64,000 bases of DNA from an uncultured Gammaproteobacteria bacterium (lineage in GTDB: Bacteria; Patescibacteriota; Patescibacteriia; UBA9934). Position 1 is the stretch's first letter. The number at the start of each line of letters is the position of its first letter. A model generated the notes under the pieces. The model did not search any database. It was not told the origin of the DNA and worked only from the letters and a program-made list of their open reading frames with translations. A program made the position numbers and the translations under genes. The stretch is from positions 8,158 to 72,157 of the forward strand of contig CAYNYL010000005.1 in NCBI GenBank assembly GCA_964401485.1, in the 5' to 3' direction. Below are positions 2,328 to 61,520 of the stretch, piece after piece.

Positions 2328-3068
2328 ATGAATTTTTTAAGCGCCTTGCGCGGGATTGGGCTTAGCGAAAGCGACGCAAACGTCTATCTCGCGATTTTAA
2401 AGGGTGGACCATCAACGGTACTGCAAATCGCCGAAGGCTCAGGACTTACCCGACAGATGATTTATCACATTCTGCCAAACCTTCTACAAAAAGGCCTTAT
2501 AAAAAGCGTGCTTGTGAAAAAAACACGAAGATACCAGGTTGTCGACCTGGCGGCTCTTAGAGATTTCGCAGAAGAGGCGAGTAAAGCAATCATTAATATT
2601 TTACCAGAACTCAAGCGGCTCACCCCCGAACAAAGTCCAAAAGCCACCGTTCAAATTTACAGCAACACCCTCAGTATGCGAGAGTGGTACCGAAGGTTTA
2701 TCAAGGAGGCCACACCCGAAGATGAGCTGCTTGTCCTCGCAACAAACCGTGTTTGGATCAAAACCGATGAAGTCTACCTGAAAAAATTCATCGATTTCAA
2801 AAATAAGATCGGTATTCACGATAAAATCATTGCCCCTGACACAGATGCGTCACGCGCATACGCAAAAAGCATGAACCAGCCGAACGCAGAGTATCGATTC
2901 CTGAGGAAGGCCTGGAGTGACGGCGTGGAAAAATGGATTTGGAAAAACACCGTCTCCCTCCTTACAACCATCGATCACCAAGCGCAGCTCATCGTTATCG
3001 AGTCCGATGCACTCGCAACAATGGAACGTGCTGAATTTCTCGCAACTTGGCACACTCTTCCCAATTAA
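2328..3068 (+). CDS. TrmB-family transcriptional regulator (N-terminal wHTH)
   Basis: N-terminal SESDANVYLAILKGGPSTVLQIAEGSGLTRQMIYHIL matches the TrmB HTH. A C-terminal sensor-like domain follows. Confidence 0.65.
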   Translation: MNFLSALRGIGLSESDANVYLAILKGGPSTVLQIAEGSGLTRQMIYHILPNLLQKGLIKSVLVKKTRRYQVVDLAALRDFAEEASKAIINILPELKRLTPEQSPKATVQIYSNTLSMREWYRRFIKEATPEDELLVLATNRVWIKTDEVYLKKFIDFKNKIGIHDKIIAPDTDASRAYAKSMNQPNAEYRFLRKAWSDGVEKWIWKNTVSLLTTIDHQAQLIVIESDALATMERAEFLATWHTLPN

Positions 3069-17151: not shown

Positions 17152-17339
17152 AGGTTGATTTGTTCATCCGTGCCTCCGAGAGATCCTCGCTCAAAGGGTT
17201 TCCAAGAGGACGGCTAAGTTATATGCGGACTATAGGGGATTTTTGTGTCCCCGTCAATCCGAGCCTCTACGCGCGATTTGATCGCGAGTAAGGGCAGGGG
17301 CTCGACCATCCATTGCTGGCGGTCGAGCACGGTTGGCGG

Positions 17340-17525
17340 CTAGAACCCAGGGGGCTCCGTGCCGTCGAGCTCCATGATCGCGACCTCGGGGTCGGCCATC
17401 ATGGCGAGAATGAGCCGTTCGGCTCGTGGGTCCTTGGGCTTGGGCACGGTTCGTGCCTCGTCTGGCGGAACGCTCTGCACGGATCGAAAGTTCTTCTCTC
17501 GATCCTGGTCGCTTGGAAACTCCAT
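17340..17525 (-). CDS. Small hypothetical protein (61 aa from the internal Met) inside a GC-rich islet
   Basis: CAGGAGGA lies 5 nt upstream of ATG (MEFPSDQ...). G/C dominates codon third positions. Local GC is about 62% against a ~50% backbone. Confidence 0.35.
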   Translation of the reverse strand: MEFPSDQDREKNFRSVQSVPPDEARTVPKPKDPRAERLILAMMADPEVAIMELDGTEPPGF

Positions 17526-17597
17526 GGCATCCTCCTGAAAGCGAAAGAATCGTACCATTTTTCTGATTTTCGTCAATAGTTAGAGGAATTCCGCGAT

Positions 17598-20132: not shown

Positions 20133-20951
20133 ATGAACTATCTTCGAATTCTCTTTGCCCTACTCGCCCTTGTGCTCGTTGCGATCATTGGGTTTCTTGT
20201 ATGGAATAATGGTGCGGAAGCGCCAATGCCGATTGATAATGAGCCGGTTGCTGAGGAGCAAGCGGAGAATGTTCGCGTGACAAATCTTGTAAGTAATAGT
20301 GTTGTGACTTCCCCGCTCCTTGTCGAGGGCGAAGCGCGCGTGTTTGAGAATGTTGTTAATTGGCAGGTGCGGGCGCTTGATGAAACGGTCTTGGCGCAGG
20401 GATATTTCATGGCGGATGCTCCAGATATCGGTCAGTTCGGACCATTTAGCGAGGAAATTTTCCTTCCGGTCCTTGAGGAAGAGTCATTTTATCTTGATGT
20501 GTTCGCGTTTTCTGCGAAGGACGGCGAACGAGTCGATATCGTGCGACGACCACTGCGAGTTGAGGGAACGGGAAAAACGAGTGTGAAGGTGTTTTATGGC
20601 GATACGGATCAAATCGTAGCGGGTGACTGTACCGCGGTCGATTTTGAGAAGCGAACGGTCCATGCGACGGTAGCGACGGCGAAGTTGGCACTTACGGAGC
20701 TCATTCGTGGAAAAGTGCCTGCCTGGGCGACGAGCGAGATTCCGGAGGGTACGGGAATTAACTCGATCACGATTAAGGATGGTGTTGCGAAGGTTGATTT
20801 CAGTTCCTATTACGTACAGGGCTGGAGCGGAGGTTCTTGTAAGGTCTCTGTTTTACGGGCCCAAATCGAAGAAACACTCAAGCAATTTGAGACCGTTGAT
20901 ACCGTCGAAATAACGGTAAACGGCGAGGCGGAATCAATTCTTCAACCGTAA
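20133..20951 (+). CDS. Secreted GerMN-domain and Gmad2 Ig-like-domain protein
   Basis: N-terminal signal/TM. VVTSPLLVEGEARVFENVVNWQV is Gmad2-like. The C-terminal region from VKVFYGDTD onward is GerMN-like. Confidence 0.6.
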   Translation: MNYLRILFALLALVLVAIIGFLVWNNGAEAPMPIDNEPVAEEQAENVRVTNLVSNSVVTSPLLVEGEARVFENVVNWQVRALDETVLAQGYFMADAPDIGQFGPFSEEIFLPVLEEESFYLDVFAFSAKDGERVDIVRRPLRVEGTGKTSVKVFYGDTDQIVAGDCTAVDFEKRTVHATVATAKLALTELIRGKVPAWATSEIPEGTGINSITIKDGVAKVDFSSYYVQGWSGGSCKVSVLRAQIEETLKQFETVDTVEITVNGEAESILQP

Positions 20952-20966
20952 TATTTCGCTAAGGAT

Positions 20967-21008
20967 AAACATCCGTTGAGGGTAAAACCTTGACGGATGT
21001 TTGTTTTT
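20967..21008 (+). terminator. Hairpin terminator (AAACATCCGT...ACGGATGTTT followed by a T run)
   Basis: 10-bp perfect stem. Confidence 0.55.
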
Positions 21009-21103
21009 AAGGCATACTCCCCTTCGCTGTCTTGGAAACAAGACACATCAATCGGGCAGTTCCGCCCGTTGAAGATGCCCCTCCCCGGGCAATTGGAGCG
21101 CAC

Positions 21104-21955
21104 ATGCGCAATTCGTCCCTCCGTCTCCTCGCTCTGAACAACATCGGTCCGCAGGGCCACAAGCAGGTGGACGTCGCCAACACGACCCTCTTCCTCTACG
21201 ACACGACGAGCGGCCAGTTCTGCATCTCGATGGACCGCCGGATCCAGACCGACCTTCCCGAGGGCTACCTGGTCGTCGTCGGTGCGGTGGCCGACGAGAA
21301 CAAGATCATCGCCGGCGTCGACGCCCGTCTGAAGTTCGACGACAAGGTCGCTTCGGACATGGGTGACGCGCTGACCGAGACCTACAGCGGCATGATCAAC
21401 CTCGACACCGCGGCGATCGACACGAAGCTCGACACGAAGCTCGTGCGCCTCGAGCGCGACGGCGACACGTGGAAGTACACGGTGAACGATGCCTTCCGCT
21501 CCTTCGAGGTCGACCGTGACGGCAAGTTCGGCCTCATCGACCAGAACGGCGGGCTGTCCTACGACATCTCGTTCAAGAAGATGCTCGATCTGGTGGGTGG
21601 CAAGGACGTGTTCAAGCCGAAGGTGACCTTCGCGGCGGGTTCGCGCCTCATCCCCGGCGTCCCGGGCACCAAGTTCGGCGTCTACGATCCGAACACGACG
21701 TTGACGCACTACCTCGACTACGAGGGCAACTTCATCTCCGGTGAGGCCGCCGTCATCCCCGTCAGGGCGAAGGACGGGGACGGCTACGCCACGGTCTCCC
21801 GGGACAAGGACGGTGCGGTGTCGATGATCGGGAAGATCGCCGACATCTCGGAGGTCTTCGAGGTCGGCGGGGACTTCTATCAGAAGCTCACCGCCGCCGC
21901 CAACATGGCCGGGGACGCCCACAAGGCGCCCGCCAACATGGTGAACGCCAAGTAG
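21104..21955 (+). CDS. Hypothetical 283-aa protein in a GC-rich, GC3-biased islet (about 63% GC)
   Basis: GGAG lies 5 nt upstream of the ATG (MRNSSLRLL...). Nearly every codon ends in G/C (gac, ggc, ctc, acg), unlike the flanking genes. The antisense 409-aa ORF is low-complexity (HRHR, GGGG), as expected for a high-GC antisense frame. Terminators flank the gene on both sides. Confidence 0.65.
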   Translation: MRNSSLRLLALNNIGPQGHKQVDVANTTLFLYDTTSGQFCISMDRRIQTDLPEGYLVVVGAVADENKIIAGVDARLKFDDKVASDMGDALTETYSGMINLDTAAIDTKLDTKLVRLERDGDTWKYTVNDAFRSFEVDRDGKFGLIDQNGGLSYDISFKKMLDLVGGKDVFKPKVTFAAGSRLIPGVPGTKFGVYDPNTTLTHYLDYEGNFISGEAAVIPVRAKDGDGYATVSRDKDGAVSMIGKIADISEVFEVGGDFYQKLTAAANMAGDAHKAPANMVNAK

Positions 21956-22067
21956 CGCCAACCGTTCCTCCCTCCTGCCCGTGCCTTCGAAGCAGTAGAG
22001 GGAGAGTTGCCGATCCGGATGAGCTGGATCTGGTGACAGTCTACCGCAAGGGGTACTCCCCGCGCGG

Positions 22068-22116
22068 GGCGTCGGGTACAGGTATGAAAGCCTGTGCTCG
22101 ACGCCTAATTTTTTTT
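22068..22116 (+). terminator. Rho-independent terminator (GGCGTCG...CGACGCC followed by taattttttttg)
   Basis: Read directly in the sequence. Confidence 0.6.
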
Positions 22117-22153
22117 GCGCGAGTTCCTTTCTTTCTGTACACTCGATGTATCT

Positions 22154-24712
22154 ATGGCACAAAAAAAGCACATGATTTTACTTGATGGAAATGCCCTTCT
22201 TCATCGAGCTTGGCATGCAATTCCCCCCCTTTCGACTCCGCAAGGTACTGTTGTAAACGCAGTTTATGGGTTTGCAAACATTGTTGAGAAAATGTTAGAT
22301 GAAAAAAAGCCTGATGCGGTTGTTGTTGCTTGGGATCTTCCGGGGGGAACATTCCGTGACGAGGTGTTTGAAGACTACAAGGCGCATCGTGAAGAGAAAG
22401 AGCAGGAGCTTTACGATCAAATCCCGATGATTCAGGAGATGCTTGCGAAGTACGGGATTGCGTCTGTTTCGGTTCCTGGGTTTGAAGCGGATGATATTAT
22501 TGGTTCGTACGCAAAGCAATTTGCGAGTAAGGACTGCGAGGTTGAGATTCTGACGGGTGACATGGACAGCATGCAACTCGTCGACGAGCATATTTTTGTG
22601 ACGGCTTTTGTAAAGGGGCTCTCGGAAACTAAAAAGTATGATATTCCCGCCGTGACTCAGCGATACCAACTTGCCCCGTCGCAACTTATCGATCTTAAGA
22701 CACTTATGGGGGATCCTTCGGATAATATCCCTGGACTTAAGGGCGTTGGGAAAAAGACCGCGACGGATCTTCTTCTTGCACATGGGTCGATTAAGGGGAT
22801 TCTTGAGGCGATCGCGCGGGGCGAGGTGAAGCCTTCCGTTGCAAAGAAATTCGAGGATCAGGGGGACCGGATCGAGCAAATGAGAACGCTTGCTACGGTT
22901 GTTACGACAATGAAACTTCCTCTAGGGTTTGACGAGATTCTTCTTAAACCGGTTGATCGCGCTTCCCTCCTGCAGCTCTTTACCGAGTATGGATTTAAGC
23001 GACTCGTGCAAAAGTATCAAGATGAAGTCGCTCCCGCCCCTACGCTAAAGACAAATCTTGAGGAGACGACCCTTGATGCACTTGATCGAGAGATGCTCAT
23101 TCTTCAGATTGAAGAAAAGGCGGCGGATTTGTTTGGTGCCGAGATTGGCGGGCTCGTTCTTTCCGATAGAAAGCGCTTTGTACGGTTTGAACACCCCGAT
23201 CGAGAGACGCTTGACCGCATTCTCGGTGCTCTCAACTCGGCAAAGCTTGTCGTTGGTCATGATCTTAAGCGTTCGATGCATCGTATTGGTGAAATCACGG
23301 CTCCGATTCACGACGTGATGATTGCCGGGTACCTACTCGCATCGCACTTACGTGAGTTTGATCTTCAAAATCTTGTTCGAGAGACCTTGAAGGGTTCACT
23401 TCCCGCGACAATGCTTGAACGTGTTTCCGTTCTCGTGTCGCTTTACGAAAAGCAGGCGTTTCTTCTTGAAGAGGCTGGCATGACAAAACTGTCGCAAACG
23501 CTCGAAATGCCTTTGATGCGTGTACTATTTAAAATGGAGGCGCAAGGAATTCTTGTTGACCGTGGCCACCTTGGGTCGCTTTCTTCGCTTTTTGAAACCC
23601 GCCTACTTGAACTTACCAAGGCAATTCATACGAATGCGAAGAGAGAGTTTAATATTAATTCTCCAAGCCAGCTCGCTGAGGTATTGTTTGTTGATCTAGC
23701 CCTTCCAATCAAGGGAATTAAAAAAACAAAGACCACATTTTCGACCGCCGCTCCGGAACTTGAAAAACTCCAGGGAACACACCCGATCATCGATCTTATC
23801 GGTGAGTACCGCGAGCTTGCGAAACTCAAATCGACCTACGCAGATACGCTCCCGCTTCTTATCGCAGGCGATGGTCGCATCCATACCTCTTACAACCAAA
23901 CAGTTGCAGCAACGGGTCGCCTCTCATCATCTGACCCGAATCTCCAAAATATTCCGATTCGTACCGAACTTGGGATGGAAATTCGTAAAGCATTTGTCGC
24001 TCCACCCGGCTACGTCCTTATTTCCATGGACTATTCGCAGTTCGAGCTTCGACTTGTGGCCTCGATTGCGAAGGATCGGTCATTTATCGATGCCTTTCGT
24101 GGTGGAGAGGATATTCACGCTGTGACCGCGGCGCAAATTCTCGATAAGTCACTCGCGGAGGTAACAAAAGATGAGCGCCGTGCGGCAAAGGCGGTCAATT
24201 TCGGAATTCTGTACGGCATGGGTGTTCGAAATCTTGCTCGGTCAACCGGGCTTTCGCAGGCCGAGGCGAAGGCGTTTCTTGATCGTTACTTTACAATTCA
24301 TAAAGGCATTGTCGAATATATTGAATTAATGAAAGAAACGGCGCACACCCAAGGGTACGTCGAAACACTTTATGGCCGACGCCGCTACTTCCCGGACATC
24401 AACTCGGGTATCGGACAGCTCGTTGCGGCGAGCGAGCGCATGGCGATGAATATGCCAATCCAAGGTACGCAGGCGGATCTCGTAAAGATGGCAATGCTTG
24501 AAGTTGAAAGCTGGATCGAGAAATCTGGTACATCTGTAAAGATGTTGCTTCAGGTTCACGACGAACTTGTGTATGAAGTCCGTGAGGAGGAGGCGGTCGA
24601 GGCAGCTAGGTCGCTTAGGGAGATTATGGAGTCGGTATGGAAGGATGAGGTTCCGCTTATTGTAAACGTGGCCATGGGAAAAACATGGGGTTCAATGGAG
24701 GGTCTGTCGTAG
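22154..24712 (+). CDS. polA: DNA polymerase I
   Basis: N-terminal 5'-3' exonuclease region (LLDGNALLHRAWHA) and C-terminal family A polymerase motifs (RRAAKAVNFGILYGM, QVHDELVYE). Start set at the ATG at 22154 (MAQKKHMILLDG). Confidence 0.9.
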   Translation: MAQKKHMILLDGNALLHRAWHAIPPLSTPQGTVVNAVYGFANIVEKMLDEKKPDAVVVAWDLPGGTFRDEVFEDYKAHREEKEQELYDQIPMIQEMLAKYGIASVSVPGFEADDIIGSYAKQFASKDCEVEILTGDMDSMQLVDEHIFVTAFVKGLSETKKYDIPAVTQRYQLAPSQLIDLKTLMGDPSDNIPGLKGVGKKTATDLLLAHGSIKGILEAIARGEVKPSVAKKFEDQGDRIEQMRTLATVVTTMKLPLGFDEILLKPVDRASLLQLFTEYGFKRLVQKYQDEVAPAPTLKTNLEETTLDALDREMLILQIEEKAADLFGAEIGGLVLSDRKRFVRFEHPDRETLDRILGALNSAKLVVGHDLKRSMHRIGEITAPIHDVMIAGYLLASHLREFDLQNLVRETLKGSLPATMLERVSVLVSLYEKQAFLLEEAGMTKLSQTLEMPLMRVLFKMEAQGILVDRGHLGSLSSLFETRLLELTKAIHTNAKREFNINSPSQLAEVLFVDLALPIKGIKKTKTTFSTAAPELEKLQGTHPIIDLIGEYRELAKLKSTYADTLPLLIAGDGRIHTSYNQTVAATGRLSSSDPNLQNIPIRTELGMEIRKAFVAPPGYVLISMDYSQFELRLVASIAKDRSFIDAFRGGEDIHAVTAAQILDKSLAEVTKDERRAAKAVNFGILYGMGVRNLARSTGLSQAEAKAFLDRYFTIHKGIVEYIELMKETAHTQGYVETLYGRRRYFPDINSGIGQLVAASERMAMNMPIQGTQADLVKMAMLEVESWIEKSGTSVKMLLQVHDELVYEVREEEAVEAARSLREIMESVWKDEVPLIVNVAMGKTWGSMEGLS

Positions 24713-31014: not shown

Positions 31015-31176
31015 TCACTCTTCGTCGACTTCGTCGTTGTAGCTCGGTAGCATTGCTGCGCCGATCAGCGCGAGGACCACCGCGAACAGGGTGATCTCCC
31101 ACCGGGTAAACCAGTGGGCGTTCAGGTGATTCGCAAGCTCGGCCTCGAGGCCGTTCCAACCAGTCATGGCGAACAT
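31015..31176 (-). CDS. 53-aa single-TM microprotein, GC3-biased
   Basis: GGAGGA lies 6 nt upstream of the ATG (MFAMTGWNGLE...). The hydrophobic helix is ITLFAVVLALIGAAML, followed by an acidic tail. About 80% of third positions are G/C. Confidence 0.4.
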   Translation of the reverse strand: MFAMTGWNGLEAELANHLNAHWFTRWEITLFAVVLALIGAAMLPSYNDEVDEE

Positions 31177-51587: not shown

Positions 51588-53078
<1,491 letters not shown>

Positions 53079-53193
53079 CATATATAGTTTATAACCCGAA
53101 GGTTATAGCTCTGCTTAAATAGACGTTGCAATCACACAGTTGTCAATTCTTTCTGTAGAGCCAATTTGGCTCGTTTTTAATGACCACGGGGGC

Positions 53194-55991: not shown

Positions 55992-57107
55992 GTGCTATCC
56001 TTCTACTATATGAAGAAAGGCTGGTATTTTCTCGGTTTTGTCGTAATCTCGCTTATTTTCGCTATTTTTTGGCAATTTAGGCCGGTAAAAGAGGGGGTAT
56101 TCACGGTCTATGAACATGGCTATTACTCGAAGAGTCTCTATGATCATGCCTATACGAAGGCCGGGGAGGTGAGTCCGGTTCCCGCAAAGAGCGCGATTGT
56201 GGCCCATCATCTTCTTGTCGCGGACAAGGTTGCGGGAGTTTTTGAGGCGATCGGGTCCGAGGACGTGCAAACGGTGATCCTCTTAAGTCCTAACCATTTT
56301 TCACAGGGGCTAGAGGAGGCGCAGGTCGGGGCGGTTGGGTTTACGACACCCTACGGAACGATTGCGCCGGACCTCGACATGGTCCAAAAACTTCTCGACG
56401 GGTATATTCCGCTCTCGCTTGAGAATGAAACATTTCGGGGTGAACACGGAATTTCAACACTAACCCCGTTTATTAAGCGGTCATTTCCAAACGCGAAGCT
56501 CGTGCCGATCGTTCTCCACGAGTCGATGCCTGCCGAGGAGGCGGTACGATTTGGACAGGTTATTGCGGAGAGTGCCGGAAAAGAGACGGTTGTCATTGCG
56601 AGTATTGATATGTCGCACAATCTTCCGCTTGATTACCAACTTTTCCACGACGGGGTGACGAAGGCGGTCATTGCGGGAGGGGTTCGACACGCCGAAGGAG
56701 TCGATCTCGAAATTGACGCGAACGCCGTTCTTCGCACGCTTCTTTCGTACAATGAACAAAAAGGAACGGAGGCGTTTACCCTTACTCATCACGGAAGTTC
56801 GCTTGCGATGGGGAAAGCCGAAGTCTCCGTTGATAATACGAGTCATATTCTTGGGTACTTCCTCAAAGGGTTGCCTGACGCGCGCGGAATTTCAAGCGCG
56901 CTTGTGACAAATGACCAGCTCTTACTCGATCAGTCGGATGATCAACCGTTTTACGAGCGGGATCGAAGGGCGTTTGGAGCTCACATGACAATGATTCGAG
57001 AAGACTTTTTCTCCTCGGGACTTACGTGCGAAGGAGTTGAAAAAACCATCGGAACAATCGGTTTGTTGTTTCACGGAACGGAGTGTATAATTTCGGTAAT
57101 TCACTAA
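55992..57107 (+). CDS. MEMO1/AmmeMemoRadiSam-system protein B family protein, membrane-anchored
   Basis: Family-like motifs AIVAHHLL, LLSPNHF, EHGISTLTPFIK and SIDMSHNL. N-terminal TM helix WYFLGFVVISLIFAIFW. Confidence 0.5.
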   Translation: MLSFYYMKKGWYFLGFVVISLIFAIFWQFRPVKEGVFTVYEHGYYSKSLYDHAYTKAGEVSPVPAKSAIVAHHLLVADKVAGVFEAIGSEDVQTVILLSPNHFSQGLEEAQVGAVGFTTPYGTIAPDLDMVQKLLDGYIPLSLENETFRGEHGISTLTPFIKRSFPNAKLVPIVLHESMPAEEAVRFGQVIAESAGKETVVIASIDMSHNLPLDYQLFHDGVTKAVIAGGVRHAEGVDLEIDANAVLRTLLSYNEQKGTEAFTLTHHGSSLAMGKAEVSVDNTSHILGYFLKGLPDARGISSALVTNDQLLLDQSDDQPFYERDRRAFGAHMTMIREDFFSSGLTCEGVEKTIGTIGLLFHGTECIISVIH

Positions 57108-57115
57108 TTGTTTTT

Positions 57116-58927
57116 ATGGACCAAACACACCCGGCCCCACAAGCTCCGCAGATGCCGTCGTCGCCTCACAAGAAAGGCGACTCGACGACACTCATTCTCA
57201 TTATCGTTGGAATAATCGTCTTCGGCGTTGTTGCCGTCGCGATTATTGGAGCGCTCGTTGCCTATGTCCTTACGCAAACCGTTTCGACAATCGTCGAGGA
57301 GGCGGATATCAACGGAATTGTGGACGTGATTGAGGACGAAATTGACGAGGAGACCGGCGTTGGGAATGAAGAGGTTGATAACGGTGAAACGATTGTTGAT
57401 GAGACCTCGGGTGCACTTGCAATTAATTGGGTGCCTGTCGCGGAGCATCGATACTCCGGGGCGGAGGGATGGGCTTTAGCTGCTGCGACCTATCCAGATC
57501 AGGTAGAGGAGGGATACCTTGAAGTTGGGACTGTTAAGAGTGGTGCCTATCAAGGGTATTCGCTCAGAACGCAAGTATTTTCGGCTGATGGAATGGGTGA
57601 AACGAATAAATACGTAGTCTATTTAGCGGACCCTAGGAGTATTTCCAAGCCGATCATTCTCGATCGCTACGGAAGCGTTCTTTACGGATTTGGGGCAGAG
57701 TCATGGAAATACTTTTCGGTTAGAGACTTGCTCGGCGATGCAATGGTTAATCGCCTCGGTGACCGTGTTGTTTTTAGCACGGGACTTACCATCTCGGACT
57801 TTGTGATTGCTGAAACAATTCGAGATACACAGGGACGAAATTATGACCTAACGGCAATGTGGACGGTCCTTTTTGAACGGCCAGACTCGGAAGTCGTTTT
57901 TGGCAAAACAACGGACGGATATACAATTTATCGTGCCGAGGATGAGTATGCAACGAAGGGGCGCTTTTATATCGTTCGGGAGGATGGTCGAGCGATCGTG
58001 TATGCCCTTAATATTCCATTCTGGGAGGATGAGAAAAAAATGGTTGCACGTCCGGAATTTAGCTTCATGTCCGAGGGCGCTACGGGGGAGTATGCAAAAG
58101 GATTCATTGGAGGCTGTGGTTTTGAAAATCCGATCAACGTTATTGAAGATATTTCTGTTCTCGGAAAATTAAAGAAGGTTGATGTCACAGGAGGCTATTC
58201 AATTTATGTCCCAGAGGATTTGAATAATGAGTTCTATAGCGAGCGGTATGAAAGCTGGATCTATAATGGAGATAAGAGTTTTGAGGACTTCACTGCGATC
58301 ACTCCGTTTTTCTATTGGCAGGATCAAATTGGAAGATGGCTTGAATTCGTTCATGTTGATGTGCTCCCCGCTGCGGAGTGTGGGAAGCCGGTGATTTACC
58401 TCTATCCGGAGGAGACGATGGATGTTGACGTAACGGTTGAGCCTCGCGGAGGGTTCACGTTTACGGAGCCTGCGTATAATGATGGATGGTCGGTGACGGC
58501 AAAGCCTAATGGACAGTTGACGAATAAGGCGGACGGGAAGACCTATCCATACTTGTTCTGGGAGGGTCGAGGAGGTTTATACCAGGCACCGGAAGAGTTC
58601 TGGGTTGTCGAGCAGAAAGAGGTTAAACGTTTCCTAAAGACGACACTTGCGCAGTATGGATTGAATCGCCAAGAGATCGCGGACTTTAATGAGTTCTGGG
58701 TGCCGAGGATGAAGGAGGCGGAGTTCTACAAGATTGGATTTCATGGCACGGCGGTGATGGACGAGATTGCGCCTTTGACGGTTAGCGGTGGGCCAGACTC
58801 TATCTTCCGAATCTTGATGGACTTTGACGAACTTGAGGCGCCGGTTGAGGCAAACCCTCCGAAGAAGATTGTGCCTTTTGTGCGGGAAGGGTTTACGGTG
58901 GTTGAGTGGGGTGGAGTCATTGAATAA
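57116..58927 (+). CDS. Hypothetical membrane-anchored protein (604 aa) with a large extracytoplasmic domain
   Basis: Start at MDQTHPAPQ. TM helix TTLILIIVGIIVFGVVAVAIIGALVAYVL. Acidic linker. No family recognised. Confidence 0.55.
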   Translation: MDQTHPAPQAPQMPSSPHKKGDSTTLILIIVGIIVFGVVAVAIIGALVAYVLTQTVSTIVEEADINGIVDVIEDEIDEETGVGNEEVDNGETIVDETSGALAINWVPVAEHRYSGAEGWALAAATYPDQVEEGYLEVGTVKSGAYQGYSLRTQVFSADGMGETNKYVVYLADPRSISKPIILDRYGSVLYGFGAESWKYFSVRDLLGDAMVNRLGDRVVFSTGLTISDFVIAETIRDTQGRNYDLTAMWTVLFERPDSEVVFGKTTDGYTIYRAEDEYATKGRFYIVREDGRAIVYALNIPFWEDEKKMVARPEFSFMSEGATGEYAKGFIGGCGFENPINVIEDISVLGKLKKVDVTGGYSIYVPEDLNNEFYSERYESWIYNGDKSFEDFTAITPFFYWQDQIGRWLEFVHVDVLPAAECGKPVIYLYPEETMDVDVTVEPRGGFTFTEPAYNDGWSVTAKPNGQLTNKADGKTYPYLFWEGRGGLYQAPEEFWVVEQKEVKRFLKTTLAQYGLNRQEIADFNEFWVPRMKEAEFYKIGFHGTAVMDEIAPLTVSGGPDSIFRILMDFDELEAPVEANPPKKIVPFVREGFTVVEWGGVIE

Positions 58928-58931
58928 TAAA

Positions 58932-58967
58932 AGCGCCCTGCCTTTTACGGCGGGGCGTTTTGTTTTT
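58932..58967 (+). terminator. Rho-independent terminator (GCCCTGCC-ttttac-GGCGGGGC followed by gttttgttttt)
   Basis: Read directly in the sequence. Confidence 0.6.
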
Positions 58968-59036
58968 GGAAATGGTGAAGGTCGCCGTCCCCGAAGGAAC
59001 GACGACCTTGAGCTCACCGGAGGGCCGAGATGGCTC

Positions 59037-59165
59037 TCAGTGGCCGCCGTCTTGGAGACGGCCGCCGTCGGTGAGGATGGAGGACTGGGCGCGGTTGACG
59101 ACGAAGGCGACGGCGGTGAGGTCGTTGGTGGCCGGAGGGGCCGGACCGTAGGTGATGCCACGCAT
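59037..59165 (-). CDS. Candidate 42-aa peptide gene with extreme GC3 bias
   Basis: GAAGGAG lies 7 nt upstream of the ATG. Translation: MRGITYGPAPPATNDLTAVAFVVNRAQSSILTDGGRLQDGGH. 36 of 42 third positions are G/C. It sits in a ~260-bp GC-rich islet between two terminators. Confidence 0.35.
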   Translation of the reverse strand: MRGITYGPAPPATNDLTAVAFVVNRAQSSILTDGGRLQDGGH

Positions 59166-59264
59166 GGCACACTCCTTCGTGAGGGTGGACTGGACGTCCG
59201 CGATACCATTAACGGTTCGTCGAGGACGGGTGAAGAATAATGAAATCGTTACTACCCGTCAAGA

Positions 59265-61475
59265 TTAACGACGGGCGGTGCCGGCTTCGTCGATGTCTTC
59301 CATATTGACCGAAAGGAGGTTTGAGACGCCGTCGTTACCCATTGTCACGCCGTAAAGGAGGTTTGCCCGTTCCATCGTCGCGCGGTTGTGGGTGATAACA
59401 ATAAATTGGGTCAGGGTTTGGAGTTCGGAAAGGATGTTTGCGAAGCGGACGGTGTTTGCTTCGTCGAGGGCTGCGTCGACTTCGTCGAGGACGACGAATG
59501 GGGATGGGTTGGTCGCCATGATTGCGGAAAGGAGGGCGATCGACGTAAGGGCGCGTTCGCCTCCCGAGAGGGCGGAAAGGGAAGTCGCCTTTTTGCCCGG
59601 CGGAACGGCTTCGATTTCAACGCCAAGGAGACGTTCGCGACGTTTACCAAGGCGAGCCAGGGCAACTTCGCTTTCGGTTTGTTCTTCGATAAGTTCGTCG
59701 ATCGCGCGGTCGAGGGTGACGCCTGTCCCCGCTTCCTGCGTTTTCTCGACTTTCGTTAGACTTGCGTGACCTCCGCTAAAGAGCACCTTAAAGTACCGGC
59801 CAAAATGGTCGTTGATATGTTTAAACGAGGTGTCGGCCTGGGTTTTGATTGTCTCGTCGAGGTCGTCGATAATCGCTTCCGTTTTCTCGATTGCCGATTT
59901 TAGGTCGGTCAGTTGTTCGGAGAGGAAGGTAAAGCGGGTTTTTGTCGCCTCGTATTCGGAAAGAGTTTCCTCATCGATTGCACCGATCGCCTCGAGTTGT
60001 CGGCGGAGGCGCAGGAGGTCGCTTCGAAGGGCGTCGAGGTTTGCGCTTTGGGTTTTTTCGAGGGTCGCTTCGTCGACTTTCGCCTCGCGCATCTCGCGCT
60101 TTAGGTCTTCAAAGCGTGTTTCGATTCGCGCACGTTCAACCGCGAAGGCGTTTGCGTTTCGCTCAAGGGTATAGCGCTCGTCTTGGAGGCTTCGAAGGGT
60201 CTTTTGGATCGCAAAAAGTTCCGTGTTAACGGACGGAGTTGGGCGAAGGCTTGCTTGCCATGCGGTTTGCGCAGACTCGAGAGTCGAGCGAGCGGAGAGG
60301 GATTTTTGCCTTGCCTCTTCGAGGGCCTTTACGAGGGTTGGATCGACCTCCGCTTCGGTTTCCTTTGGACGGAGGAGCTTTTCTTTAAGGGAGCGAATGA
60401 GTGAAAAGATTTGCAGGACGGGAAGAGTGTCATTTTTTAAAATCGCGTCGAGTTCTTCGACGATCCGGGCGAGGGGAAGGGGGGTCCAGGAAGCGGTTTG
60501 CTTCACTTTCGAAAGCTCAAGAGCACGCTCGGCTTGGAAGACGGCTTGGCTCGCTTCGCGGTCCGCTTGTTGGGCCTTCTTAAAGGCATCTTCAAGCTCT
60601 CGATTCGTTCCCGGTTCAGTCTTTGTTGCGCTTTCACGCTCGAGGGTGAGGAGGCGTTCGTCGGAAGCCTTGAGTTTCGCGAGAACGGCGTCTAGTTTTT
60701 CTCGGGCAGAGGCTTTATTTTTTGAAACGACAAGAAGCTCATGGTCAAACGCAAACCATTGCGCGCCGTAGTAGCTCGATTCGATGCGCTTTAACTCAAC
60801 CTCGAGTGTTTCGCGTTGCTCGAGGCGACGCGCTTGGCGTTCAAGGAGTTTTAATCGCGGTTCGATTTCCGCAAGAAGACGCTCGGCTTCGATCATGTTT
60901 TCAATCGCCGACTCGAGCTTTAAGAGGGATTGATGGCGTCGCATTTGGAGGGCCTTCACCCCCGTCGCATCGTCAAAAAAGACCTTACGCTCTTCCGGAG
61001 ACGCCGTAAGAACATGATCGATCATTCCCTGGCCGACAACGGTGTAGCTCCGACCCCCGATGCCGATCTCCGCGAGAAGGAGTTGGATATCTTGGAGGCG
61101 CGCCGTTTTTCCGTTTAAGAGGTACTCGGAATTTCCATCGCGGTAGAGACGGCGGGTAATCGTAAACTCGCTAAATTCGACCGCGTTATGCCCCCCGGTA
61201 TTATCAAAAAAAAGTTCGACCTCGGCAAAACTCGCGCGACCCTTGCCCTCGCTTCCAAGGAAAATGACATCCTCCGATAATCGCCCACGAAGGAGCTTCA
61301 TCGATTGCTCCCCAAGGCACCAACGAATCGCGTCCGCAAGGTTCGACTTTCCCGACCCGTTTGGCCCAACGATCACCGTCAGCCCATTTTTCTCGCCCTT
61401 CGCCGTCGCAAAATTCACCTCCGTGCGTTTCGCGAAGGTCTTAAAGCCGGAAACCGAGAGGCTTTTTAGGTACAT
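59265..61475 (-). CDS. smc: SMC-family chromosome-segregation ATPase, short form (about 737 aa)
   Basis: N-terminal Walker A GPNGSGKSNLADAI, a long coiled coil, the C-terminal signature LSGGERALTSIALL and a Walker B VVLDEVDAALDE. Start set at the ATG at 61475 (MYLKSLSVSGF). Confidence 0.8.
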   Translation of the reverse strand: MYLKSLSVSGFKTFAKRTEVNFATAKGEKNGLTVIVGPNGSGKSNLADAIRWCLGEQSMKLLRGRLSEDVIFLGSEGKGRASFAEVELFFDNTGGHNAVEFSEFTITRRLYRDGNSEYLLNGKTARLQDIQLLLAEIGIGGRSYTVVGQGMIDHVLTASPEERKVFFDDATGVKALQMRRHQSLLKLESAIENMIEAERLLAEIEPRLKLLERQARRLEQRETLEVELKRIESSYYGAQWFAFDHELLVVSKNKASAREKLDAVLAKLKASDERLLTLERESATKTEPGTNRELEDAFKKAQQADREASQAVFQAERALELSKVKQTASWTPLPLARIVEELDAILKNDTLPVLQIFSLIRSLKEKLLRPKETEAEVDPTLVKALEEARQKSLSARSTLESAQTAWQASLRPTPSVNTELFAIQKTLRSLQDERYTLERNANAFAVERARIETRFEDLKREMREAKVDEATLEKTQSANLDALRSDLLRLRRQLEAIGAIDEETLSEYEATKTRFTFLSEQLTDLKSAIEKTEAIIDDLDETIKTQADTSFKHINDHFGRYFKVLFSGGHASLTKVEKTQEAGTGVTLDRAIDELIEEQTESEVALARLGKRRERLLGVEIEAVPPGKKATSLSALSGGERALTSIALLSAIMATNPSPFVVLDEVDAALDEANTVRFANILSELQTLTQFIVITHNRATMERANLLYGVTMGNDGVSNLLSVNMEDIDEAGTARR

Positions 61476-61520
61476 ACTAGAACTATTGTAACGGAAGTCT
61501 GTTTCCTTGACCATTTTCCC

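Follow-up and report, generated by a model that had tools for sequence, protein, structure and literature searches.

Locus and gene content

We analyzed a 64-kb stretch of DNA (64,000 nt, hereafter the window) from a member of Candidatus Uhrbacteria (Patescibacteria / Candidate Phyla Radiation, CPR; the lineage was named via related GTDB records). The chromosome is 50% GC over the window, in which we identified the housekeeping genes dnaA, dnaN, trigger factor, PNPase, polA, recA, ftsK, rpoB/C, 16S rRNA, trmD, S16 and smc. The focus here is a small open reading frame (ORF) on the minus strand, proposed in an initial annotation as a 129-nt candidate peptide gene downstream of smc. The ORF is present at 59037..59165 and encodes the peptide that had been given. 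Its placement is also correct: it sits between the smc stop (59265) and the terminator of a convergent gene for a 614-aa protein. The ORF lies in a GC-rich islet (58964-59234) that, in agreement with the initial annotation, has the highest GC content in the window (0.717 over 120 nt; 0.69 is reached by only 0.1% of segments). The reported Shine-Dalgarno (SD) sequence, GAAGGAG, was found at 59172-59178, 6 nt upstream of the ATG, and is complementary to the 3' end of the 16S rRNA (..CACCUCCUUU). The coordinates of features at this locus are given in Table 1.

Alleles in related genomes

Homologous ORFs were identified on three related Uhrbacteria contigs (L062, L064 and L066). With that of the window they make up four alleles, each directly after the smc stop and at the same position. 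Three close contigs (L061, L062 and L063) were reached via homologues of the 614-aa protein. L062, an NCBI metagenome contig, carries a homologous islet with an ORF that matches that of the window in position and frame, and L061 stops within an islet. A phmmer search of 1.84 billion cluster representatives returned a single match (E = 1.4e-4), to the protein on L064. Contig L066, which covers the full locus from smc to the 614-aa gene, was reached through a second small gene of L064.

Other searches did not extend the family. A word-indexed search of 5.8 billion proteins gave no match to the peptide, although very short proteins may fall outside this index. Neither the peptide nor the 614-aa neighbour had an exact match in a collection that does not contain the source genome. 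Two JGI metagenome scans returned nothing, a weak negative given that the search patterns stayed near the input sequences, and two IMG/VR scans and blastn against phages and plasmids returned only chance GC-rich matches. At 60 GTDB loci reached via smc (SMC ~50% identical), neither the islet nor the 614-aa gene was found downstream of smc, and a search with the SMC C-terminus gave nothing above 64% identity (the best match, L065, has a different gene context). There were no matches to the window peptide in Pfam (E <=0.01), or to any of the four alleles in NCBIfam (E <=10), PADLOC, PHROGs or the PDB sequences. Full-text literature searches on the peptide motifs and on CPR small proteins found nothing relevant. 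The small-protein family is thus apparently previously undescribed, and is so far found in only one Candidatus Uhrbacteria strain group. Its near absence from protein databases is due to gene callers having annotated antisense shadow ORFs: on L062, the genes called at 2122-2454 and 2444-2650 (+) are shadow ORFs of 110 and 69 aa, and the 40-aa gene is uncalled.

Evidence for a protein-coding gene

The SD, the ATG and the stop codon are kept in all four alleles, and the alleles differ in length by whole codons. All share two motifs, an N-proximal GPAPPA[T/S] and a C-terminal LTDGGRL[Q/E]DGGH, on either side of a hypervariable middle. Over the two conserved blocks (20 codons), variable sites are distributed 1/2/14 by codon position (binomial P = 4.7e-5, or 1.4e-4 for any frame), and one of the two second-position changes is the replacement of TGA by TAG. 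Pairs of alleles differ in these blocks by 5-10 synonymous and 0-2 non-synonymous codons, for a dN/dS (ratio of non-synonymous to synonymous change) of ~0.03 by hand estimate from the counts. The motifs are under strong purifying selection. The initial annotation pointed to frame conservation and a synonymous excess in homologous islets as the way to check the gene, and both were found.

The middle segments also carry a coding signal. GC content by codon position in the pooled middles is 0.49/0.45/0.92, and the four middles are independent samples because they cannot be aligned with one another. The untranslated regions (UTRs) of the same cassettes show no codon periodicity (0.62/0.62/0.58 in the 5' UTRs and 0.64/0.60/0.67 in the 3' UTRs). 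Comparison of the alleles therefore provides good support for the coding status of the ORF, which we consider very likely to be real. A hydrophobic core, noted initially, is evident in the window allele but is not a trait of the family, as the other alleles do not share it. No signal peptide, transmembrane segment or cysteine is conserved across the four alleles, and the lack of a conserved signal-peptide-like segment weakens the earlier suggestion of a secreted peptide.

We considered whether the locus could instead be a non-coding structured RNA or a hairpin-rich spacer, with the ORF arising by chance in GC-rich sequence. Shuffled sequences fold less well than either strand (z = -5.0 and -3.8), the six frames are largely open in this GC-rich stretch, and the hairpin 3' of the ORF is a real RNA element (see below). 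However, Rfam 15 gave nothing at the gathering score in the window (only chance-level matches at E <=10) and nothing for L062, L064 and L066, and the 5' UTR does not fold significantly in either the window or L062 (z about 0). Third-position variation preserves the peptide and breaks an internal hairpin. This is the 11-bp-stem hairpin that was initially placed after the ORF; the inverted repeat (59042-59066) in fact lies inside it (codons 34-42), and the hairpin that does follow the ORF is a different, 14-bp stem. Synonymous changes in the other alleles destroy the internal repeat, and thus selection acts on the peptide and not on that RNA structure. The confinement of the third-position GC signal to the ORF, the in-frame length changes and the conserved ATG and stop also argue against the RNA interpretation, which is already largely refuted and seems to us very improbable.

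We also considered that the ORF may be the decaying remains of a larger gene acquired horizontally from a high-GC donor, or that the real gene may be the plus-strand antisense ORF at 58824-59240. The composition is foreign to the host genome, and the antisense frame is open in both the window and L062. The initial annotation held that the plus-strand frames lack the third-position bias, and this proved wrong: plus frame 1 over the ORF has a GC content at third codon positions (GC3) of 0.88, and the codon-aligned antisense frame is likewise open. Since nearly all six frames are open across this stretch, openness of a frame means little here. Shadowing of this kind occurs elsewhere in the window, where a GC3-saturated gene at ~21104..21955 (+) casts an antisense shadow, the long ORF at 20942..22171 (-). 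Against a remnant, which the initial annotation had named as an outcome that would refute the gene, no larger homologue exists among the 1.84 billion representatives. Against the antisense ORF, the motif changes would all be first-position and non-synonymous on the plus strand, the ORF starts within the 614-aa gene and runs across its terminator, the antisense frame is shortened to 30 aa in L064, and the G-U pairs of the 3' hairpin fit only the minus strand. A remnant or an antisense gene is very unlikely. The degraded-gene, antisense and non-coding RNA readings were all rejected.

Promoter, leader and 3' stem-loop

The ORF is part of a cassette of ~295 nt that is an insertion/deletion polymorphism among close relatives. 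A consensus scan identified a promoter-like site whose -35 hexamer begins 2 nt past the smc stop. The four alleles have identical hexamers but differ in the 17-nt spacer between them. This sense-strand site is the only promoter-like site in 58700-59500. All alleles have an SD.

The stem-loop 3' of the ORF is well conserved as a structure, and every cassette ends in one. Six homologous hairpins are 97.6% paired, with compensatory double changes at 9 of the 14 pairs, a result reached by none of 500 shuffles. Loops are UUCG, CUCG or UCUG, followed by UU(C/U)(A/C)CCAUU. The several G-U pairs fit only the strand of the ORF. A covariance model of the hairpin scores 65.6 bits on the minus strand vs 13.1 bits on the opposite strand. 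Its one other match in the window, a weak one, lies right after the S15 gene, and this position suggests that the hairpin is a terminator or stability element.

The number of cassettes at the locus varies: there are none in L063, one in the window and in L062, and two in L064 and L066. In L063 the whole stretch is absent, because the smc stop follows the terminator within ~10 nt. The bidirectional terminator shared with the 614-aa gene is flanking sequence, outside the insert, and is kept in L061, L062, L063 and L066.

The second cassette (L064 565-708 and L066 634-777) has a 47-aa ORF (MRTNITRPSNCLDHSSARSVDIMFNSVDRGQFEILTSAGSVEITAAC) with GC3 0.94 and the SD AAGGAGG. A promoter-like TTGACA lies within the loop of the upstream terminator hairpin, and a 3' region of ~170 nt with many hairpins precedes the covarying terminal hairpin. 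By hhalign, the cassette-2 peptide shows no detectable relation to the family of the 42-codon ORF.

Table 1. Features of the smc-proximal locus and alleles of the small ORF (window coordinates).
Feature	Coordinates	Strand	Description
Small ORF	59037..59165	-	42 codons + TGA; peptide MRGITYGPAPPATNDLTAVAFVVNRAQSSILTDGGRLQDGGH
N-proximal motif GPAPPAT	59127..59147	-	Codons 7-13; GPAPPA invariant in 4/4 alleles, last residue T or S; variable sites by codon position 0/1/4
Hypervariable middle	59076..59126	-	Codons 14-30; unalignable between alleles, lengths 14-19 codons
C-terminal motif LTDGGRLQDGGH + stop	59037..59075	-	Codons 31-42 + TGA; 11/12 residues invariant; variable sites by codon position 1/1/10
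Cassette	58969..59264	-	~295 nt, insertion/deletion polymorphism; predicted promoter, SD, 40-44-codon ORF, 3' stem-loop
Promoter-like site	59234..59262	-	-35 TTGACG 59257-59262, 17-nt spacer, -10 TATTCT 59234-59239; consensus scan
Inferred 5' UTR	59166..59227	-	~62 nt; transcription start predicted
3' stem-loop	58978..59009	-	14 bp, UUCG tetraloop, then UUCACCAUUU
Bidirectional intrinsic terminator	58930..58961	both	13-bp stem, T-runs on both strands; shared with the 614-aa gene
smc	59265..61514	-	Short smc
614-aa gene, convergent	57083..58927	+	No Pfam domain
Allele L062			40 aa; MHEFLHGPAPPATRVSIFGAYKIDDHNFLTDGGRLEDGGH
Allele L064			44 aa; MNGILHGPAPPATSYATTSSGLITATLYTPIDLTDGGRLQDGGH
Allele L066			40 aa; MLRGNFTGPAPPASIQVSIVRLPTDDACLTDGGRLQDGGH

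Allelic replacement and neighbouring genes

Nucleotide identity changes abruptly along the locus. The window is 90-100% identical to L062 across the 5' UTR and the smc 3' end, 28-75% identical between codon 2 and the 3' hairpin (55-70% in the middle segment), and 93-97% identical across the terminator and the 614-aa gene's 3' end. L064 and L066, which derive from consecutive sequencing runs, are 100% identical over the 435 nt of cassette 2 and only 23-77% identical, with indels, over cassette 1. For comparison, the 3' end of smc differs by 5-8% from strain to strain, with all codon changes but one synonymous. By hand estimate, synonymous divergence of the motifs is similar to, or somewhat greater than, that of the smc 3' end, and the middle is far beyond it. 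These abrupt switches indicate that cassette alleles are exchanged by recombination through the conserved flanks, and that deeply diverged alleles persist.

A hypervariable segment with a fixed third position, mostly C, resembles the AAC-codon logic of diversity-generating retroelements, and the small size and dedicated promoter are similar to those of type I toxins of toxin-antitoxin pairs. Neither fits well. No reverse transcriptase domain, template-repeat copy or second copy of the islet was found in the 64 kb, and the alleles differ by indels and at third positions too. A type I toxin is opposed by the absence of a conserved transmembrane or other hydrophobic segment and of an antisense promoter in the scan. 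Both were rejected, and we regard either as extremely unlikely.

The 614-aa gene is itself a mosaic: its middle (57332-58405) is ~50% nucleotide-identical to that of L062, and its ends are identical or nearly so. L061 has a 92%-identical 614-aa gene beside a different cassette, and L063 has the gene with no cassette; thus, there is no strict linkage between the two. The 614-aa protein is widespread in Patescibacteria (763 relatives at E <1e-10). It has an N-terminal transmembrane helix, an acidic linker and a conserved C-terminal domain with an invariant ECGKPVIYLYP. An AlphaFold model of it (pLDDT, the per-residue confidence score, 83) has no PDB fold match by Foldseek (template modeling score about 0.1), and gives no hint of peptide processing.

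On the other side of the cassette, the SMC protein (minus strand) is only 749 aa, and the relatives we found are similar in length; bacterial SMC proteins are typically about 1,100-1,200 aa. A lone 16S rRNA gene lies at 51589-53085 (-), with a VanW-domain gene and tRNAs nearby. No 23S or 5S rRNA genes were detected anywhere in the 64 kb.

Codon bias and foreign composition

The GC3 of the ORF is 0.86-0.88, as the initial annotation had estimated (~86% of codons ending in G or C), and C occupies 79% of third positions. The initial reading of this as a coding signature of high-GC genomes does not apply, as the host chromosome has the moderate GC content given above and its genes in the window have a GC3 of 0.51 +/- 0.04. 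Of 13,120 segments of 42 codons in real genes, none exceeds 0.79. The codon bias, with a GC3 ~0.35 above the host mean, is thus foreign to the host. Nor does it indicate high expression, given that the ribosomal protein genes do not share it (GC3 0.51-0.58). GC is elevated throughout the cassette (~0.6 in UTRs and other non-coding parts and ~0.9 at third positions, vs 0.50 and 0.51 in the host), which suggests that the cassette came from a gene pool of higher GC content. Patescibacteria with more GC-rich genomes are one candidate for that pool (e.g., L045, with 62% GC and GC3 0.93).

Other GC3-rich genes occur in the window. The 284-aa ORF at ~21104-21955 (+), which is shadowed by the long minus-strand ORF mentioned above, has a GC3 of 0.90-1.0 along its full length, host-like GC at first and second positions, and no Pfam domain. 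A promoter-like TTGACG precedes it and a terminator follows. Its neighbours are a Gmad2/Germane-domain gene on one side and polA on the other, and it looks like a horizontally acquired single-gene insert. There are also two small ORFs preceded by an SD, at 17340-17525 and 31015-31176. The first (61 aa, minus strand; MEFPSDQDREKNF...GTEPPGF; GC3 0.75) is preceded by caGGAGGatgccATG and lies in a second GC-rich islet, in the gap 17152-17597 between the S15 gene and an XerC-like integrase gene. It shares a GGAG..TGCC-ATG context with the 42-codon ORF. Several hairpins and a terminator-like GGGGACACAAAAAUCCCC are found 3' of it, and the minus strand folds with z = -5.5. This islet has no Rfam or Pfam match, and by hhalign the 61-aa ORF is unrelated to the family of the 42-codon ORF. 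The second (53 aa, minus strand, GC3 0.81) is intergenic and has a terminator-like hairpin of its own. Its product, with an acidic tail and a transmembrane stretch predicted at WEITLFAVVLALIGAAMLP, is possibly another unannotated small membrane protein.

GC3-rich ORFs (0.73-0.87) were also identified in eight smc regions of relatives (L001, L003, L014, L024, L028, L035, L040 and L048), whose genomes are 42-53% GC. Those with a Pfam match encode accessory enzymes (NUDIX, GNAT, PNP_UDP phosphorylase), and the others have no Pfam match. It seems that GC3-saturated genes recur across Uhrbacteria genomes as a minority class.

Comparison with known systems

Phage morons are autonomous promoter-gene-terminator units between conserved genes, as described by Hendrix and colleagues. 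The cassette resembles them as a self-contained unit (predicted promoter, SD, short ORF, 3' hairpin) between two conserved genes, with a composition that differs from its surroundings and a presence and copy number that vary among close relatives. Unlike morons, it lies in a bacterial chromosome, near smc, a Memo-like gene, a DHH-family gene, S16, trmD and the 16S rRNA gene. It is not in a phage or prophage, and has no match in INPHARED, IMG/VR, PHROGs or plasmid collections. Thus, on its predicted promoter, ORF, 3' hairpin, atypical composition and insertion polymorphism, the cassette can be described as moron-like, with a chromosomal location.

Precursors of modified peptides were also considered. 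Cyanobactin PatE, the fungal MSDIN peptides and staphylococcal AgrD are precursors with conserved flanks and a hypervariable core. The peptide could be a precursor of this kind, either of the RiPP type (peptides synthesized by ribosomes and modified after translation) or pheromone-like, with its enzymes and exporter encoded elsewhere in the genome. The motifs would then serve for recognition or cleavage, or else the modified core would be the conserved 12-mer at the C-terminus itself. The initial annotation had suggested a RiPP-like precursor. The layout is compatible with this, although which part would be the core is ambiguous: the peptide is ~40 aa long, its N-proximal and C-terminal segments are conserved and flank a hypervariable middle, and divergent alleles are found together in backgrounds that are otherwise identical or nearly so, as in the PatE, MSDIN and AgrD precursors. 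In addition, ester rings like those of graspetides could in principle form through the conserved T and D of LTDGGRLQDGGH.

The gene content does not agree. As had been stated initially, no maturation genes are nearby: by Pfam, every large ORF in the 64 kb is either housekeeping or unknown, with no maturation enzyme, reverse transcriptase or peptide transporter. Specifically, no ATP-grasp, YcaO, radical SAM, lanthipeptide synthetase, prolyl oligopeptidase, AgrB or C39 transporter was found in the 64 kb. In contrast to PatE, MSDIN and AgrD, there is no processing enzyme, exporter or receptor gene adjacent or within the window. The peptide matches no precursor hidden Markov model in Pfam or NCBIfam, and no export signal or amphipathic leader is conserved, nor is Cys. 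The cassette is also an independent indel beside housekeeping genes. A precursor is in our view unlikely.

Individual classes were rejected on similar grounds. For AgrD, Cys occurs in a single allele and only 5-6 N-terminal residues precede GPAPPAT, with no AgrB domain in the window. The GG pairs that might suggest a double-glycine-leader bacteriocin are C-terminal (DGGRLQDGGH), and no C39-domain ABC transporter was found in the window. No known RiPP precursor class is supported, given the lack of a curated family match and of a co-located maturation enzyme, protease or exporter in the 64 kb. Lasso peptide precursor and Pup- or ubiquitin-like tag readings were also rejected.

A third comparison is with orphan small-ORF families, which come from comparative metagenomics (e.g., human-microbiome small-protein catalogues). 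As for these, validation is only via conservation of the frame across genomes and a synonymous excess, and gene callers miss the gene. The present family differs in comprising four alleles in one Uhrbacteria group, in its hypervariable middle, and in its elevated GC3.

Proposed function and significance

We conclude that the ORF is probably a genuine, translated small-protein gene of a new, lineage-restricted family, carried on an autonomous cassette, with a product that would be unmodified and may take part in strain-specific interactions. The cassette, with its predicted promoter, SD, ORF and 3' stem-loop, is inserted between the smc stop and the terminator of the 614-aa gene. Selection keeps the peptide and not the RNA, preserving the two motifs, and the 14-19 residues between them have been replaced wholesale from allele to allele. 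The peptide may act unmodified in the cell. Its two conserved ends may be docking motifs for conserved partners, and the variable middle may set strain specificity (e.g., in phage, host or strain conflict or recognition).

Several points weigh against this interpretation. Over the whole ORF, the window and L062 differ about equally at the three codon positions (14/13/11), and their amino-acid identity is comparable in all six frames. This comparison does not discriminate between frames, and thus support for coding comes from the motifs, from the start and stop codons, from length changes in whole codons and from the GC3 periodicity. The codon-position test is somewhat inflated because the motif blocks were delimited after seeing the alignment. 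The evidence comprises four alleles and one partial contig, all from one narrow lineage, and short Logan contigs could in principle be assembly mosaics. An AlphaFold model of the peptide has no confident fold (pLDDT 63) and was not used. The assignment of docking motifs and of strain specificity is pure inference.

A broader possibility, which we consider doubtful, is that the smc-proximal locus of these episymbiotic Uhrbacteria is a small array of exchangeable peptide cassettes. The middles would be strain "specificity codes", analogous to pherotypes or RiPP cores, presented or processed via the two invariant motifs by machinery encoded elsewhere, with diversity maintained by frequency-dependent selection. 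If true, this would be a peptide-based recognition or conflict system, for which we know of no precedent in the CPR.

Small proteins are systematically missed in annotation, as illustrated by the shadow ORFs called in place of the 40-aa gene on L062. In a mid-GC genome, frames saturated in GC3 can serve as a flag for genes acquired horizontally, but such frames call for comparative confirmation, because antisense frames carry the same bias. The analysis adds a small-protein family that matches nothing in the family libraries, structure database and full-text literature searched. Its evolutionary pattern is unusual, with invariant ends, a middle that is swapped wholesale and varying cassette copy number, and such a pattern usually marks recognition or conflict molecules. 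The genomes of CPR bacteria are tiny, and thus each accessory gene is informative about their host-dependent lifestyle.

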